Source: Escherichia coli
GTDB taxonomy: Bacteria > Pseudomonadota > Gammaproteobacteria > Enterobacterales > Enterobacteriaceae
NCBI RefSeq assembly: GCF_041248615.1
Contig: NZ_CP158426.1
DNA: 64,000 bases
Strand: one strand, 5' to 3'
The stretch's first letter is position 1; the number at the start of each line of letters is the position of its first letter. Positions 8,616 through 15,878 of the stretch are shown in pieces. The notes beneath the pieces are model-generated. The model saw only the letters and a program-made list of their open reading frames with translations, searched no databases and had not been told where the DNA came from. A program made the translations under genes and the position numbers.

Positions 8616-9488
8616 TGCATCGAAAAGCATTTCTTCAGAAATAATTTTAAGTTTTGCACCATTATCATCCCTATAAGATATAGCCTTTTCGATCTTCCTT
8701 CCGTGACTAGAGAATTTCCAATCACGGGAGGAAAGCGTCCCAATTACTAAAAAATCCAACTTTTGAGTAATTCCACTACTGATGTTCCCACCAGCATTTT
8801 TAATCAAATTTTCAACTACGGCTCTCTTTCCTGCAACAAAAGTGCCTGTAAGACAATAGGTTTTACCCTCTAACTCTATCGAAGCCCCTACATCAATAGG
8901 CAGCCTGGTCGCCAAACCATCCACCACCCCACTTTCCAAGTCACATCCTGTGAAGTCTACTAATGCCTTATGTAGAGTTAAACTCTCATCTTCAGTAATA
9001 ACACCATCTTTAAGAATTTCCTTTACAAGTGCATAAAGTTTTTTTCCTGGGTAGTTGTTCTTCAAAGCTCCATTTTGCTCAAGCCACCAATTAAGATATC
9101 TTATTTCTTCTTGAGTTAAGTTCCGATCAGCAATTAATCCTTTACATAGTCCATTAAGTAAATGGACATCTACATCCTTGGAGTAAAAATCAATTTCAGG
9201 GATATCAAGAATTTCCCTCTGTATTTGGAGAAGACTATTTTTAAGGTCATCACGTTCTTCTGATGTGATTATTCCATCCGCAAGAATATCCGACACCCGT
9301 GCAGATAGACTTTTTATAACTCCATTATTGATAATCTGCTTTGCTTCAAGTAACCATGTATCTAAGTAAAGAACCTCCTCTTCACGGACAACTCCATCTG
9401 CAATGATTCCATCAATGATGCTAATCAAGTTAGCAAATAACTTGTCCCGGTTCTGTGTGTAATTAAAAGCGTAAAGCGCGTCTTCCAT
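8598..9488 (-). CDS. repeat-containing protein with C-terminal BRCT domain (296 aa from ATG 9488, GGAGG SD)
   Basis: four ~40-aa repeats with ADG(V/I)ITxEE motif, then EGKTYCLTGTFVAGKRAVVENLIKNAGGNISSGITQKLDFLVIG resembling the LigA-type BRCT fold. Confidence 0.55.
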   Translation of the reverse strand: MEDALYAFNYTQNRDKLFANLISIIDGIIADGVVREEEVLYLDTWLLEAKQIINNGVIKSLSARVSDILADGIITSEERDDLKNSLLQIQREILDIPEIDFYSKDVDVHLLNGLCKGLIADRNLTQEEIRYLNWWLEQNGALKNNYPGKKLYALVKEILKDGVITEDESLTLHKALVDFTGCDLESGVVDGLATRLPIDVGASIELEGKTYCLTGTFVAGKRAVVENLIKNAGGNISSGITQKLDFLVIGTLSSRDWKFSSHGRKIEKAISYRDDNGAKLKIISEEMLFDALPSSR

Positions 9489-9545
9489 ACAACCTCCTTT
9501 TTTTGATAATCCTTGCACTCCTTGGCTACTCGTTCAAACCACATA

Positions 9546-9595
9546 AAGTTGTTGACAACATTCAAAACCACAACTAAATTACAACTTAAAGGTGT
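9546..9595 (+). promoter_or_regulatory. second operator/promoter region (OL-like): -35 TTGACA (9552..9557), 17 bp, -10 TAAATT (9575..9580) overlapped by the same heptamer repeats
   Basis: AAGTTGT 9546, ACAACAT 9555, ACAACTA 9570, ACAACTT 9581, and ACAACTT-AA-AGGTGTT 16-mer shared with the 7860 region. Confidence 0.45.
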
Positions 9596-9712
9596 TAAGA
9601 CAACGAACAGGCAGGACGCCCACGAAGTAGCCGCTTGGGGCATATGAAGTCCAGGATGATTCGTTGAGTCATGTTGTGCCACTAGGCACTCATGTTAAAG
9701 CAGGTGTATGAA

Positions 9713-9988
9713 ATGAAAGTCCAGATTTTAAACAATAACTGTGAAGTCGTTTGGTCATACGACATAGCCGCCCCTGTAGATCAGAGCGGCGATAGCTGGA
9801 CCAATGGGAAACATCAGATTATGGCTGGAGTTGTGTTCTCTTTACGCCGTGCTTTGGAACAGGCTGAAGTATTTCCATCAGACCCTGAATGGAAATGGCC
9901 TTTTTCTATTTGTCCAAATTCGGAGAGCACATTTCAGAAAATTGGTCAGAAAGTCGCACTCGAAGAGCATCAGCCAACTGTTTCCTGA
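9713..9988 (+). CDS. hypothetical small protein (91 aa from ATG 9713; AGGTG SD)
   Basis: ORF downstream of the OL-like promoter; overlaps a convergent ORF; no family recognised. Confidence 0.25.
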   Translation: MKVQILNNNCEVVWSYDIAAPVDQSGDSWTNGKHQIMAGVVFSLRRALEQAEVFPSDPEWKWPFSICPNSESTFQKIGQKVALEEHQPTVS

Positions 9989-10151
9989 TTTTTTCAGGTA
10001 ACTCGTCGGCATCGCAGAAACAACAACGCTCGATCATGTTGAAAGCCGATTCGTAGAACTGTTTCTGCTGAGTGTCGCTGAGACAGGAAAAGAGCGACGT
10101 TACGATGATTTTATTAATTGCATTATCAAATTCTTTTTCATCAAAAGTCAT
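9906..10151 (-). CDS. hypothetical small protein (81 aa)
   Basis: ORF with AGGA SD 7 nt upstream of ATG 10151; no family recognised. Confidence 0.35.
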   Translation of the reverse strand: MTFDEKEFDNAINKIIVTSLFSCLSDTQQKQFYESAFNMIERCCFCDADELPEKIRKQLADALRVRLSDQFSEMCSPNLDK

Positions 10152-10406
10152 TTGATTTTCCTTTTATGTATACGGGCTTAAAAGGATACCACCGAGCCTG
10201 AAGTGGTGAAAAGACAGGCACATAACAGCTAAGTATTTTCAACCAAAGAGAATCCTTAGCGTTGTGGTGAATGCGGCTCAGCGCACGCGGGTTAAGGTTG
10301 AGGCTGACAGTCGACCTTCTGTGGATACCCACCCGCCTGGTGTGCAACCTTCGCCAGGCACCGGGAGGCACCCGGCACCACAACTTTATGCTGTGTGTAG
10401 TCTTGG

Positions 10407-10452
10407 CGGTACCAGTTTGTACACTTGCTTCCGGCTGGTACCGCTCTTTTTA
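10407..10452 (+). terminator. strong hairpin plus T-run at the end of a GC-rich structured non-coding stretch
   Basis: CGGTACCAG (10407..10415) pairs with CTGGTACCG (10435..10443), 19-nt loop, then CTCTTTTTA. Confidence 0.4.
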
Positions 10453-10588
10453 CAAAACAGAGAAGAGCATCACCGGACGACGGGCTCATAACCCAATCCA
10501 TCCGGGCGGCTGCCACCGCAGGTGTTCTTCTCTGTTTTGTGGAGAAACCAACCGACCTTGCAGGGTCGATATGATGAGGAGCAGCAAA

Positions 10589-10951
10589 ATGGCTAGCGAA
10601 CGCAGTACTGATGTGCAGGCATTTATCGGGGAGCTGGACGGCGGCGTATTTGAAACCAAAATCGGCGCAGTTCTCAGTGAAGTCGCTTCCGGTGTTATGA
10701 ACACGAAAACCAAAGGTAAGGTCTCACTCAACCTGGAAATCGAACCATTTGATGAGAACCGTGTGAAAATCAAACACAAACTCTCATATGTTCGCCCGAC
10801 TAACCGCGGGAAAATTTCCGAAGAAGACACCACCGAAACGCCGATGTATGTCAATCGCGGTGGTCGCCTGACTATTCTGCAGGAAGACCAGGGACAGTTA
10901 CTGACTCTTGCCGGTGAACCTGACGGAAAACTCCGCGCAGCAGGTCGTTAA
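10589..10951 (+). CDS. hypothetical prophage early protein (YfdP-like by position; 120 aa from ATG 10589, AGGAG SD)
   Basis: ORF-track 226-aa frame trimmed to the first ATG with a good SD; lies upstream of yfdQRS-like genes. Confidence 0.45.
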   Translation: MASERSTDVQAFIGELDGGVFETKIGAVLSEVASGVMNTKTKGKVSLNLEIEPFDENRVKIKHKLSYVRPTNRGKISEEDTTETPMYVNRGGRLTILQEDQGQLLTLAGEPDGKLRAAGR

Positions 10952-11044
10952 TATCGTTTTTAATTAACTGATTATTTATCTCATCACTGGGTGATGCTGC
11001 CAACTTACTGATTTAGTGTATGATGGTGTTTTTGAGGTGCTCCA

Positions 11045-11320
11045 GTGGCTTCTGTTTCTATCAGCTGTCCCTCCTGTTCAGCTACTGACGGGGTGGTGCG
11101 TAACGGCAAAAGCACCGCCGGACATCAGCGCTATCTCTGCTCTCACTGCCGTAAAACATGGCAACTGCAGTTCACTTACACCGCTTCTCAACCCGGTACG
11201 CACCAGAAAATCATTGATATGGCCATGAATGGCGTTGGATGCCGGGCAACCGCCCGCATTATGGGCGTTGGCCTCAACACGATTTTCCGCCATTTAAAAA
11301 ACTCAGGCCGCAGTCGGTAA
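11045..11320 (+). CDS. insA: IS1 InsA
   Basis: 91 aa [40 protein letters not shown]... Confidence 0.95.
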
Positions 11321-11742
11321 CCTCGCGCATACAGCCGGGCAGTGACGTCATCGTCTGCGCGGAAATGGACGAACAGTGGGGATACGTCGGGGCTAAATCG
11401 CGCCAGCGCTGGCTGTTTTACGCGTATGACAGGCTCCGGAAGACGGTTGTTGCGCACGTATTCGGTGAACGCACTATGGCGACGCTGGGGCGTCTTATGA
11501 GCCTGCTGTCACCCTTTGACGTGGTGATATGGATGACGGATGGCTGGCCGCTGTATGAATCCCGCCTGAAGGGAAAGCTGCACGTAATCAGCAAGCGATA
11601 TACGCAGCGAATTGAGCGGCATAACCTGAATCTGAGGCAGCACCTGGCACGGCTGGGACGGAAGTCGCTGTCGTTCTCAAAATCGGTGGAGCTGCATGAC
11701 AAAGTCATCGGGCATTATCTGAACATAAAACACTATCAATAA
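11239..11742 (+). CDS. insB: IS1 InsB reading frame (expressed as InsAB' by -1 frameshift)
   Basis: 167-aa frame matching recalled IS1 InsB. Confidence 0.9.
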
Positions 11743-11792
11743 GTTGGAGTCATTACCCATCACTGAATATCTTTATATAGTGAGGACTTATT

Positions 11793-12617
11793 ATGTCTCA
11801 GAACTTAGACGCAACCGCAATTAATCAAATCCATGCCCTTATTTCTGCTCAGGGTGTTAATGAAATTATCAGTAAGATTGGTGCCGATGCTGTGGCATTG
11901 CCTGAGAATTTCCGCATTCATGATCTGGAAAAATTTAATTTAAATCGCTTCCGTTTCCGTGGTGCGCTTTCCACTGCCAGCATCGATGACTTTACCCGTT
12001 ATTCTAAAGATCTTGCAGATGAAGGCACCCGCTGCTTTATCGATGCTGATAATATGCGTGCCGTCAGTGTGCTTAACCTGGGTACTATTGATGAACCAGG
12101 TCACGCAGATAACACCGCCACACTCAAACTGAAAAAGACAGCACCGTTCTCTGCTCTGTTGTCTGTTAACGGCGAGCGTAACTCCCAGAAGTCACTGGCA
12201 GAATGGATTGAAGACTGGGCCGACTATCTTGTGGGCTTTGATGCTAATGGTGACGCTATTCAGGCAACAAAAGCGGCTGCGGCTGTCCGTAAAATCACGA
12301 TTGAAGCAAACCAGACCGCTGATTTTGAAGATAATGACTTCAGCGGCAAACGCTCCCTGATGGAGTCTGTCGAAGCGAAAACCAAAGACATTATGCCAGT
12401 GGCATTTGAATTTAAATGCGTTCCGTTTGAAGGCCTGAAAGAACGTCCGTTTAAATTACGCCTCAGCATTATCACTGGCGATCGTCCTGTACTGGTTCTG
12501 CGCATTATTCAGCTGGAAGCGGTGCAGGAAGAAATGGCTAACGAATTTCGTGATCTGCTTGTTGAGAAATTCAAAGACAGCAAAGTAGAAACCTTCATTG
12601 GTACTTTCAGCGCCTGA
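11793..12617 (+). CDS. yfdQ: YfdQ-like prophage protein (DUF2303)
   Basis: 274 aa, same length and gene context as recalled K-12 CPS-53 YfdQ. Confidence 0.7.
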
Positions 12618-12744
12618 TTTCATTACTGCAAATGCCCCTGCGGGGGCATTTATGGAAACATAATCGACTCAATAATCGCCGGATGGTGAGGGCTTCCTTT
12701 TACCAGAATTCAGCGTGGTGCAGCACATATACGTGGAGAACAAA

Positions 12745-13281
12745 ATGTCATTTATTAAAACTTTTTCTGGGAAGCATTTTTATTATGACAAGATAAATAA
12801 AGACGACATCGTGATTAACGATATCGCGGTTTCCCTTTCAAATATCTGTCGCTTTGCAGGACATCTTTCACACTTCTACAGCGTCGCCCAACATGCGGTG
12901 CTTTGCAGCCAACTGGTACCGCAGGAATTTGCTTTTGAAGCGTTAATGCATGATGCAACAGAAGCGTATTGTCAGGACATCCCCGCTCCACTGAAACGCC
13001 TTCTTCCTGACTATAAACGGATGGAAGAAAAAATAGACGCCGTAATCCGTGAGAAATACGGGTTACCCCCGGTTATGAGCACGCCTGTGAAATATGCCGA
13101 TCTCATCATGCTGGCAACTGAACGCCGCGAACTCGGGCTTGATGATGGCTCTTTCTGGCCAGTACTGGAAGGTATCCCGGCAACAGAGATGTTCAAAGTT
13201 ATTCCACTGGCTCCGGGTCATGCCTACGGGATGTTTATGGAACGTTTTAACGAGTTATCGGAGTTACGCAAATGCGCATGA
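12745..13281 (+). CDS. yfdR: YfdR-like HD-domain 5'-deoxynucleotidase (178 aa from ATG 12745)
   Basis: HD-domain residues (H...HD...D); GGAG SD; length matches K-12 YfdR. Confidence 0.75.
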   Translation: MSFIKTFSGKHFYYDKINKDDIVINDIAVSLSNICRFAGHLSHFYSVAQHAVLCSQLVPQEFAFEALMHDATEAYCQDIPAPLKRLLPDYKRMEEKIDAVIREKYGLPPVMSTPVKYADLIMLATERRELGLDDGSFWPVLEGIPATEMFKVIPLAPGHAYGMFMERFNELSELRKCA

Positions 13282-13634
13282 ATGTTTTCGAAATGGAAGG
13301 GTTTCTTCACGGGAGATGTGTACCACGAGACCTGAAAGTGAATGAAACGGATGCTGAATACCTGGTGCGTAAATTCGATGCGCTTGAAGCTAAATGTGCA
13401 GCACAGGAAAACAAAGTAATACCAGTATCAGTTGAACTGCCACCAGCAAATGAAAGTGTTCTGTTATTTGATGCTAACGGAGAAGGCTGGCTGATTGGCT
13501 GGCGTTCTCTCTGGTACACCTGGGGACAAAAAGAAACCGGAGAATGGCTGTGGACATTTCAGATCGGGGACCTTGAAAATATTAATATCACTCACTGGGC
13601 AGTAATGCCAAAAGCACCGGAGGCTGGAGCATAA
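13272..13634 (+). CDS. yfdS: YfdS-like prophage protein
   Basis: 120 aa, overlaps the yfdR stop; same order as CPS-53 yfdQRS. Confidence 0.6.
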   Translation: MRMNVFEMEGFLHGRCVPRDLKVNETDAEYLVRKFDALEAKCAAQENKVIPVSVELPPANESVLLFDANGEGWLIGWRSLWYTWGQKETGEWLWTFQIGDLENINITHWAVMPKAPEAGA

Positions 13635-14254
13635 TGACCACTTACACCGATAAGGAACAGATTAAAGAAATCAAAGAACGAATCGGCAGCCTAGACGTGC
13701 GAGACAATGTTGAGCGCCTTGCTTATGAAATTGCTCTGGCATCACTGGAAGCAGAGCCGGTGGCGTGGCTTCATTCAGACAATGGCTTAGGTATTCCGGC
13801 AATAACCAGGAGCAAAAACATTGCTGACAGTTGGTTATCAAAGGGCTGGTATATTCAGCCGCTATATATGGCTCAGCCAGTGTCGGTGGTGCCGGATGCT
13901 CTTCCGTCTTTAAATAATGGCATAGTCGGCTTTGATGAAGGCTGGAACGCCTGCCGCGCCGCCATGCTTCATGGTGCCAAACCTGTAAGCCAGACTTACA
14001 AGTTGAACGAGCTGTCGGGCAACTCTCCGGTAACTCCGGATGGTTGGATAAGCTGTAGTGAGCGAATGCCGAACGATAAACAGTATGTTTGGTGTTGGGG
14101 GAAGTCTTACGGCTGGACTGAGTGCGATACCTTCGAAGGGTATTACGATTGGTCGAGAAACAAATGGTGGGCAGTTACTGACGATGTGGAAGAACCGGCA
14201 TCGAAAGTAACCCACTGGATGCCGCTACCGGAGCCGCCGCAGGAGGTAAAGTAA
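13634..14254 (+). CDS. prophage protein with DUF551-like C-terminus (YfdT-position)
   Basis: 206 aa; C-terminal W-rich segment ending THWMPLPEPP; start overlaps the upstream stop. Confidence 0.45.
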   Translation: MTTYTDKEQIKEIKERIGSLDVRDNVERLAYEIALASLEAEPVAWLHSDNGLGIPAITRSKNIADSWLSKGWYIQPLYMAQPVSVVPDALPSLNNGIVGFDEGWNACRAAMLHGAKPVSQTYKLNELSGNSPVTPDGWISCSERMPNDKQYVWCWGKSYGWTECDTFEGYYDWSRNKWWAVTDDVEEPASKVTHWMPLPEPPQEVK

Positions 14255-14436
14255 TGAACAACTTAATGACAACTAAACAAGTCGCCAACTTCTGTGGAGT
14301 TTCAGTATCGACAGTTCTTCGCTGGAACAGCGTAAACAGGAGAACTGGCCAGAAATACAGGCCAGACTTTCCAGATCCTGATATTAAATCATGCCCAAAT
14401 AAATGGGCATCAGAGCCTGTACATAGATTTGTGTAA
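14254..14436 (+). CDS. AlpA/Xis-like HTH protein (putative excisionase or regulator)
   Basis: 60 aa; TTKQVANFCGVSVSTVLRW ... FPDP pattern resembling the AlpA/HTH_17 family. Confidence 0.45.
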   Translation: MNNLMTTKQVANFCGVSVSTVLRWNSVNRRTGQKYRPDFPDPDIKSCPNKWASEPVHRFV

Positions 14437-14484
14437 TTGCCTGATTTTGATATGTTCAATCCAGCATCAAATGAAGGTTAATTT

Positions 14485-15693
14485 ATGGACGAAAAACAGT
14501 TACAGGCTCTGGCTAACGAACTGGCCAAAAACCTCAAAACCCCTGAAGACCTCAGTCAGTTTGATCGGCTGCTGAAAAAGCTCAGCGTTGAAGCCGCTCT
14601 CAATGCAGAGATGACACACCATCTTGGGTATGAGAAAAATCAGTCCAGACCAGGAGCTAACTCCCGCAACGGTTATTCCACAAAGACCGTTATCACAGGC
14701 GACGGTCCACTGGAACTGCGTACTCCGCGCGATCGTGACGGTACCTTCGAACCACAACTGGTAAAGAAAAATCAGACCCGTATTACCGGGATGGATAACC
14801 AGATCCTCTCGTTGTATGCCAAAGGGATGACCACCCGTGAGATAGCCGCTGCGTTCAAAGAACTGTATGACGCAGATGTTTCACCGGCACTGATATCAAA
14901 GGTTACCGATGCCGTGATGGAGCAGGTTGTAGAATGGCAAAACCGACCACTGGATGCTGTTTACCCCATTGTTTATCTTGACTGTATCGTCCTGAAAGTT
15001 CGGCAGGACAGTCGCATCATCAACAAATCGGTGTTCCTGGCACTGGGCATCAATATCGAAGGTCAGAAAGAACTGCTGGGTATGTGGCTGGCCGAAAATG
15101 AAGGGGCGAAGTTCTGGCTCAATGTGCTGACTGAACTGAAAAACCGCGGTCTGAACGATATCCTCATCGCCTGTGTGGATGGCCTGAAAGGCTTCCCGGA
15201 TGCCATCAACACAGTATATCCGAAGGCCCGCATCCAGTTATGCATCGTGCATATGGTGCGCAACAGCCTGCGCTTCGTGTCATGGAAGGACTACAAAGCC
15301 GTCACTCGCGACCTGAAAGCGATTTATCAGGCTCCCACGGAAGAGGCAGGTCAGCAGGCACTGGAAGCGTTCGCTGCGGCCTGGGACAGTCGCTATCCTC
15401 AGATAAGCCGAAGCTGGCAGGCTAACTGGCCGAATCTTGCCACGTTCTTCGCTTATCCAACGGACATCCGCAAAGTGATCTATACGACGAATGCCATCGA
15501 GTCGCTAAACAGCGTGATCCGCCATGCGATCAAAAAGCGTAAAGTGTTCCCGACAGACGACTCGGTGAAAAAAGTGGTGTGGCTGGCAATCCAGTCTGCG
15601 TCCCAGAAATGGACGATGCCGTTGAAGGACTGGCGAATGGCAATGAGCCGCTTTATTATCGAGTTCGGTGACCGCCTGGACGGTCACTTCTGA
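14485..15693 (+). CDS. IS256-family (Mutator-type) transposase
   Basis: 402 aa; IS256-family transposase architecture recognised from recall; terminal inverted repeats of the element not resolved by eye. Confidence 0.85.
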   Translation: MDEKQLQALANELAKNLKTPEDLSQFDRLLKKLSVEAALNAEMTHHLGYEKNQSRPGANSRNGYSTKTVITGDGPLELRTPRDRDGTFEPQLVKKNQTRITGMDNQILSLYAKGMTTREIAAAFKELYDADVSPALISKVTDAVMEQVVEWQNRPLDAVYPIVYLDCIVLKVRQDSRIINKSVFLALGINIEGQKELLGMWLAENEGAKFWLNVLTELKNRGLNDILIACVDGLKGFPDAINTVYPKARIQLCIVHMVRNSLRFVSWKDYKAVTRDLKAIYQAPTEEAGQQALEAFAAAWDSRYPQISRSWQANWPNLATFFAYPTDIRKVIYTTNAIESLNSVIRHAIKKRKVFPTDDSVKKVVWLAIQSASQKWTMPLKDWRMAMSRFIIEFGDRLDGHF

Positions 15694-15878
15694 GAAAAGG
15701 CATTTACACAGAATCCTAAACAGGCTCGGGCATCACGCAAGATTTACAAATTTGCGGGAGTTATTGAGTAACGAGCATTAGCTCAGATGAGAGTTGGTAC
15801 ACCTATGGCACAGAGCTAAACCTGATCTGTTATATTCGCTCTGTGCCGGAAGTATGCCATATTTATTACATACAGTTG

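Follow-up and report, generated by a model that had tools for sequence, protein, structure and literature searches.

A simple IS1 insertion between yfdP and yfdQ in a lambdoid prophage of Escherichia coli NRZ14408

The prophage early-left region and its IS1 element

The stretch of DNA analysed here, referred to as the window, comprises 64,000 nucleotides, and its position 1 corresponds to position 4,611,546 of NZ_LT599825.1, the chromosomal record of E. coli NRZ14408. This clinical isolate is resistant to multiple drugs, carbapenems included (PMC8694152). The window contains an SfIV/SfV-like lambdoid prophage adjoining yjjG, with an IS1 element in the early-left region; the features are compiled in Table 1. 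On the minus strand of the prophage, leftward, lie a cro-like gene, replication genes, a Q-type antiterminator and the lysis genes. The gene for a BRCT-domain protein, located between the CI-like repressor gene and the pL-like promoter and also found in related prophages (L002), stands where an accessory gene expressed in the lysogen would be located. The genes from yfdQ to that of the DUF551 protein are co-oriented, with yfdR and yfdS overlapping, a single base shared at each of the yfdS/DUF551 and DUF551/HTH junctions, and a gap of 127 bp between yfdQ and yfdR. The DUF551 protein takes the position of YfdT, and just 47 of its residues match the 101-aa K-12 YfdT.

In the initial annotation, IS1 was described as separating a yfdP-like open reading frame from a yfdQ-yfdR-yfdS-like module, and this description is borne out, with identities of 98.3%, 98.9%, 98.3% and 92.5% to K-12 YfdP, YfdQ, YfdR and YfdS, respectively. 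The element lies 38 bp past the stop of yfdP (10951) and 35 bp ahead of the ATG of yfdQ (11793), and the Shine-Dalgarno sequence of yfdQ, GTGAGGA at 11780-11786, is retained after the insertion. Without IS1, the spacer between the two genes measures 65 bp and consists to 77% of A+T; IS1 favours A+T-rich targets. The spacer also holds a PacI site, TTAATTAA, at 10960-10967, 22 bp upstream of the IS1 insertion point.

Table 1. Annotated and candidate features of the prophage region, in window coordinates.
Feature	Coordinates	Strand	Basis or remark
CI-like repressor (HTH_3 + Peptidase_S24)	7929..8615	+	Pfam; RefSeq
BRCT-domain protein gene	8598-9518	-	Between CI-like repressor and pL-like promoter
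Candidate pL-like (early-left) promoter, TTGACA-17-TAAATT	9552..9580	+	10/12; best promoter-like site in 7600-14600
STnc100/PasD-like prophage sRNA candidate	10239..10453 (extends to ~10545)	+	Rfam RF02076
yfdP, 120 aa, intact	10589..10951	+	RefSeq; 118/120 identical to K-12 YfdP
Left target-site duplication copy CATCACTG, 8 bp	10982..10989	.	Abuts IS1 end; single in empty sites
IS1 element, IS1B-like allele	10990..11757	+	Canonical ends, K-12 comparison, RefSeq annotation
IRL, IS1 left inverted repeat GGTGATGCTGCCAACTTACTGAT	10990..11012	+	Exact pattern match at 10990
IS1 own promoter-like site (pIRL/PIS1), CTGCCA-16-TATGAT	10997..11024	+	Promoter scan, 9/12
insA, 91 aa	11045..11320	+	ORF list; Pfam Zn_ribbon_InsA + HTH_Tnp_IS1
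insAB' transposase, 232 aa	11045..11742	+	Conceptual -1 frameshift fusion; Pfam DDE_Tnp_IS1 E=3.7e-78
IRR, IS1 right inverted repeat GGTAATGACTCCAACTTATTGAT	11735..11757	-	Exact pattern match ending at 11757
Right target-site duplication copy CATCACTG, 8 bp	11758..11765	.	Abuts IS1 end; single in empty sites
yfdQ, 274 aa, DUF2303, first gene past IS1	11793..12617	+	Pfam DUF2303 E=2e-92; 271/274 to K-12 YfdQ
yfdR, 178 aa, 5'-deoxynucleotidase	12745..13281	+	RefSeq; 175/178 to K-12 YfdR
yfdS homologue, 120 aa, overlaps yfdR end	13272..13634	+	111/120 to K-12 YfdS
DUF551 protein, 206 aa, in yfdT position	13634..14254	+	Pfam DUF551 E=7e-17
Small HTH ORF	14254..14436	+	3' end clipped by IS1414
IS1414 (IS256 family), 1315 bp	14413..15727	+	Flank alignments to DCE7 overlap by 8 bp
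CHAT-domain protein gene, 710 aa	15879-18011	-	Next to prophage integrase
Prophage integrase	18145-19362	-	yjjG-proximal end

The repeats D1, D3 and D4 around 9552-9580 are common to the repressor/cro intergenic region (7840-7899) and are operator-like, and the 9552-9580 site is accordingly listed as a candidate pL-like promoter with its operators. Between this site and yfdP, a 13-bp hairpin followed by CUUUUU (10405-10453), with which the sRNA candidate terminates, strongly resembles a terminator, and because of this intervening hairpin the coupling of yfdP and yfdQ to the pL-like promoter is uncertain even without IS1. The promoter scan, run at a threshold of 9/12, returned no site of at least that score in the spacer, at the right IS1 junction, or between the 10405-10453 hairpin and yfdQ. 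As for the sRNA candidate, its match to RF02076 (STnc100) reaches 43.8 bits (E=5e-7), below the gathering score of 47, and the stretch folds with a z-score of -5.65. Here and in several other genomes, RefSeq places a 'frameshifted hypothetical protein' at 10264-10574, overlapping the sRNA candidate, and this entry appears to be an sRNA gene called in error. The homology of many genomes to the locus starts at 10403, where the hairpin has its foot.

The IS1 element itself is complete. It was annotated from the start as a 768-bp copy with canonical ends and a flanking direct repeat, and pattern matches confirmed an exact length of 768 bp on the plus strand, both canonical ends, and CATCACTG on both sides. 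The two terminal repeats, each identical to the 23-bp canonical pattern, agree with one another as inverted repeats at 18 of 23 positions; read on the plus strand, the right end runs ...AAGTTGGAGTCATTACC up to 11757, the IRR being also given as ...ATCAATAAGTTGGAGTCATTACC. The A6C frameshift motif occupies 11296-11302, no stop interrupts the insB' frame between 11239 and 11742, and the conceptual InsAB' product is uninterrupted, with PF03811, PF12759 and PF03400 all far above the Pfam cut-offs; the PGAP annotation of the reading frame mentions a 'programmed frameshift'. RefSeq labels the element 'IS1-like element IS1B family transposase', and its identity to IS1B/IS1C of K-12 amounts to 766/768 positions, compared with 761/768 to IS1A. 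Copies that are 100% identical occur in at least 60 other E. coli records, chromosomes as well as many plasmids, and eight IS1-containing matches were counted on the source chromosome. Judging from its intact reading frames and ends, and from the widespread identical allele, this IS1 is presumably competent for transposition.

Target-site duplication and distribution of the junction

The repeat flanking IS1 is 8 bp long, not 9, the next base outward being different on each side, and the interval 10982-11765 of the initial annotation corresponds to IS1 together with both copies of CATCACTG. A range of 8-9 bp has been described for the IS1 target duplication (PMC12903888). An 8-bp match abutting both ends of the element has a chance probability of 4^-8 (~1.5e-5), and the CATCACTG motif occurs six times on both strands of the window. 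Comparison with IS1-free homologous prophages, as suggested in the initial annotation, gave collinear spacers with exactly one CATCACTG each (the four unrelated genomes L002, L003, L004 and L006, CPS-53 of K-12, and strain DCE7), and in DCE7, the closest relative, the alignments of the two flanks have exactly 8 bp in common. Because a single copy is present in every empty site examined and the DCE7 flanks overlap by 8 bp, the repeat is evidently a true target-site duplication and the element a simple insertion, which agrees with the original proposal of a simple insertion with its duplication intact. The accompanying argument, according to which a single repeat in IS1-free copies would speak against that proposal, was inverted; one copy is what a true duplication predicts.

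For the distribution of the insertion, a reconstructed empty-junction query of 160 nt spanning the yfdP/yfdQ spacer was compared with 5426 complete E. coli genomes. Matches were obtained in 2507 of these, and 2505 were uninterrupted; the two exceptions were the source genome and one record with an interrupted or partial junction. With the filled locus as query, the IS1 junction was recovered from the source only among the 5426 genomes. The module is also uninterrupted in 46 phage records, among them those of Stx2c phages and of the temperate phages SfIV and SfV. The filled junction might be used as a marker specific to strain NRZ14408. The insertion had been called fresh, and this holds in a relative sense, given a junction unique among 5426 genomes, a perfect repeat, and an IS1 allele in wide circulation. 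The collection yielded no clonal sister of the source genome; its best relative is 98-99.8% identical in the flanks, and for this reason 'recent' is to be read as undecayed and unshared, not as dated.

A second insertion, IS1414, lies 2.6 kb downstream of IS1 and is bordered by a perfect 8-bp duplication, GGGCATCA, at 14405-14412 and 15728-15735. The same right arm of the prophage (yfdQ through CHAT and int to yjjG) is present in 18 other genomes; among the matches listed (14 of the 18), the alignment covers ~7,410 bp, compared with 8,735 bp in the query, and the difference is about the length of IS1414. On these alignments, the IS1414 insertion is evidently private to the source strain. It was also considered whether the prophage integrase had been lost through a deletion by IS1414, with the int and CHAT genes on the minus strand stemming from another island; this was rejected in view of the 18 genomes with the same arrangement. 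The CHAT-int pair is native to the prophage family (19 genomes), and the CHAT-domain gene may represent accessory or defence-type cargo.

Expression of the yfdQRS module and competing readings

Classical IS1 insertions in the gal and lac operons, analysed genetically in the 1970s, are strongly polar in a Rho-dependent manner. A search of the literature for IS1 polarity and Rho gave no results. In the present locus, insA and insB' are co-oriented with yfdP and yfdQ, so that a transcript arriving from upstream would have to cross the 768 bp of IS1, and the RNA past insA would be mostly untranslated. Rho-dependent polarity would then strongly reduce expression of yfdQ-yfdR-yfdS-DUF551 from upstream promoters, and a polar block of yfdQRS by IS1, in the sense of the uncoupling from the early promoter proposed in the initial annotation, is a plausible outcome. 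Read-through from the weak, InsA-repressed promoter of IS1 may leave at most a trickle. Base composition was also considered in this context: the plus strand of the insB' region is G-rich (C/G 0.64-0.86), which is atypical for Rho loading, and the C-rich stretch sits within translated insA, such that composition is uninformative as evidence for Rho loading.

The statement that the yfdQRST genes of CPS-53 interfere with DnaA and initiation when overexpressed reproduces the literature accurately: YfdR is a DnaA-binding protein, and replication initiation is inhibited by K-12 yfdQRST in multicopy on pBR322, while chromosomal deletion of yfdQRST left initiation unchanged (PMC4776307). In that work, plasmid pSSP, which carries functional yfdQRST, was cut at the PacI site of the spacer; it retains ~50 bp ahead of yfdQ and is functional (PMC4776307). 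The IS1 insertion point falls within this ~50 bp of native upstream sequence. Since the study names no promoter, no native yfdQ promoter can be derived from pSSP. The published data suggest that the DnaA effect needs multicopy expression; if the insertion did alter yfdQRS expression, it would provide a natural allele with which to probe the effect of the module on DnaA control at chromosomal copy number.

Taken together, the locus very probably records a single simple transposition of a common, intact IS1 into the yfdP-yfdQ spacer, private to this strain among the genomes inspected, with the flanking reading frames and the yfdQ ribosome-binding site left intact; expression of yfdQRS would be reduced by polarity, with a probably near-neutral outcome, as one step in the IS-driven decay of the prophage. 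Near neutrality is deduced from the repression of the operon by the CI-like repressor that is expected in the lysogen, and from the published phenotype, which needed multicopy and had no counterpart upon chromosomal deletion. Together with the private IS1414, IS1 points to a prophage accumulating IS hits. In essence, this is an ordinary and already annotated IS1 insertion, a known element with known behaviour, and a small example of the erosion of a resident prophage by insertion sequences.

An activating insertion would be the opposite outcome: IS1 would free yfdQRS from the prophage repressor and permit low constitutive expression, through a hybrid promoter or by read-through from the IS1 promoter, with altered DnaA-dependent initiation as the result. 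This is improbable, although several of its elements are in place. IS1 is co-oriented with yfdQ and carries its own promoter-like site; its terminal repeat holds an outward -35 and can create hybrid promoters (PMC8764528; PMC9330008, citing Prentki 1986), and the inhibition of initiation by multicopy yfdQRST would supply a phenotype. Here, the outward-facing -35-like hexamer TTGGAG lies at 11744-11749, inside the IRR, and the best hybrid at the right end, TTGGAG-18-TATCTT (-10 at 11768-11773), scores 7/12 with non-optimal spacing, and is absent from the scan at 9/12. With a relaxed threshold, the filled site and the reconstructed empty site were rescanned, and scores of 7-8/12 were obtained for the filled site. 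The start predicted for the hybrid promoter, ~11780, falls on the Shine-Dalgarno sequence of yfdQ. A weak -10, TATAGT (11776-11781), is paired with TTATCT as its -35 before the insertion and with TTACCC after it, both equally poor. Hence nothing is clearly gained or lost by the insertion with regard to a hybrid promoter, no suitable -10 being positioned 16-18 bp from the outward -35, and the earlier suggestion that IS1 supplies an outward promoter is not established. In E. coli ST131, IS1 upstream of afaA activated transcription only where a -10 was well placed; of two other insertions, one reduced transcription and one had no effect on it (PMC8764528). The promoter of IS1 that overlaps the IRL is weak and repressed by InsA (PMC12903888), and the initiation phenotype needed a multicopy plasmid, with chromosomal deletion being without effect (PMC4776307).

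Separately, a small hairpin can form at 11758-11787 by pairing of CATCACTG with TAGTGAGG, a stretch that includes the Shine-Dalgarno sequence of yfdQ. It was examined as a possible effect of IS1 and discarded, being present with and without the element and having a z-score of 0.14 against shuffled sequences in the empty context.

In its most far-reaching form, activation would mean that IS1 drives a low constitutive level of YfdQ-YfdR-YfdS, the DnaA-binding set, outside repressor control, subtly shifting replication initiation or the stress tolerance of a clinical, multidrug-resistant E. coli, and that the yfdQ and yfdR hits seen elsewhere reflect selection on the same module; we regard this as very unlikely.

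A selected inactivation or a hotspot, in which yfdQ and yfdR would be preferred or selected IS1 targets, the module costly, and the hits convergent, is likewise very unlikely. Fourteen other genomes carry IS1 near yfdP/yfdQ, in all cases elsewhere: inside yfdQ at four sites (L003, L004, L007 and L011), in yfdR at two, near its start (L013 and L014), or further up- or downstream. These insertions in yfdQ and yfdR are independent, the four inspected (L003, L004, L006 and L007) have 9-bp duplications of their own, and the A+T-rich spacer is of the type that IS1 prefers. Against this, none of the 14 has IS1 in the spacer, which is intact in 2505 of 2507 genomes. The median genome carries 11 copies of IS1, and a rough estimate gives ~8 co-oriented IS1 by chance in the ~4 kb visible to the search across ~2500 module-carrying genomes, which are not independent of one another, as compared with ~12 seen. 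The hits in the yfdQ/yfdR region show no clear excess over chance on this rough estimate, and the hotspot idea was rejected.

An artefact, that is, misplacement in the assembly or a product of IS1-IS1 recombination, can practically be dismissed: assemblies commonly go wrong at IS copies, and eight IS1-containing matches lie on the chromosome, but both junctions are exact, more than 2500 empty sites are collinear with the flanks, the 8-bp duplication is perfect, and IS1-IS1 recombination would give non-matching flanking repeats.

Relation to known insertions and prophages

With IS1B/IS1C and IS1A of K-12, the present copy shares the length of 768 bp, the terminal inverted repeats, the insA/insB' arrangement with its A6C -1 frameshift, and the Zn-ribbon, HTH and DDE_Tnp_IS1 domains; it differs from K-12 IS1B by two internal substitutions, at IS1 positions 127 and 704, with identical ends, and by its new chromosomal location. 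While the other IS1 insertions examined (L003, L004, L006 and L007) are flanked by 9-bp duplications, that at 10990-11757 is flanked by 8 bp. CPS-53 (KpLE1) of K-12, SfV and SfIV have the same gene order and the same 65-bp spacer, with YfdP, YfdQ, YfdR and YfdS being 92-99% identical. Compared with CPS-53, the module resides here in a different prophage, one adjoining yjjG, with a CI-like immunity region and a longer DUF551 protein replacing YfdT, and it is interrupted by IS1.

As in the gal and lac insertions, IS1 is placed between co-transcribed genes and lower expression of the distal ones is expected; unlike those insertions, it is intergenic here and the distal ribosome-binding site is intact. 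The outward-facing -35-like hexamer of the IS1 terminus, as described by Prentki et al. (1986) and for afaA in ST131 (PMC8764528), here faces a gene 35 bp downstream. In ST131, a strong hybrid promoter resulted upstream of afaA; at the yfdQ junction, the hexamer is combined with an 18-bp spacer and no good -10, giving a site of 7/12 whose predicted start overlaps the Shine-Dalgarno sequence.
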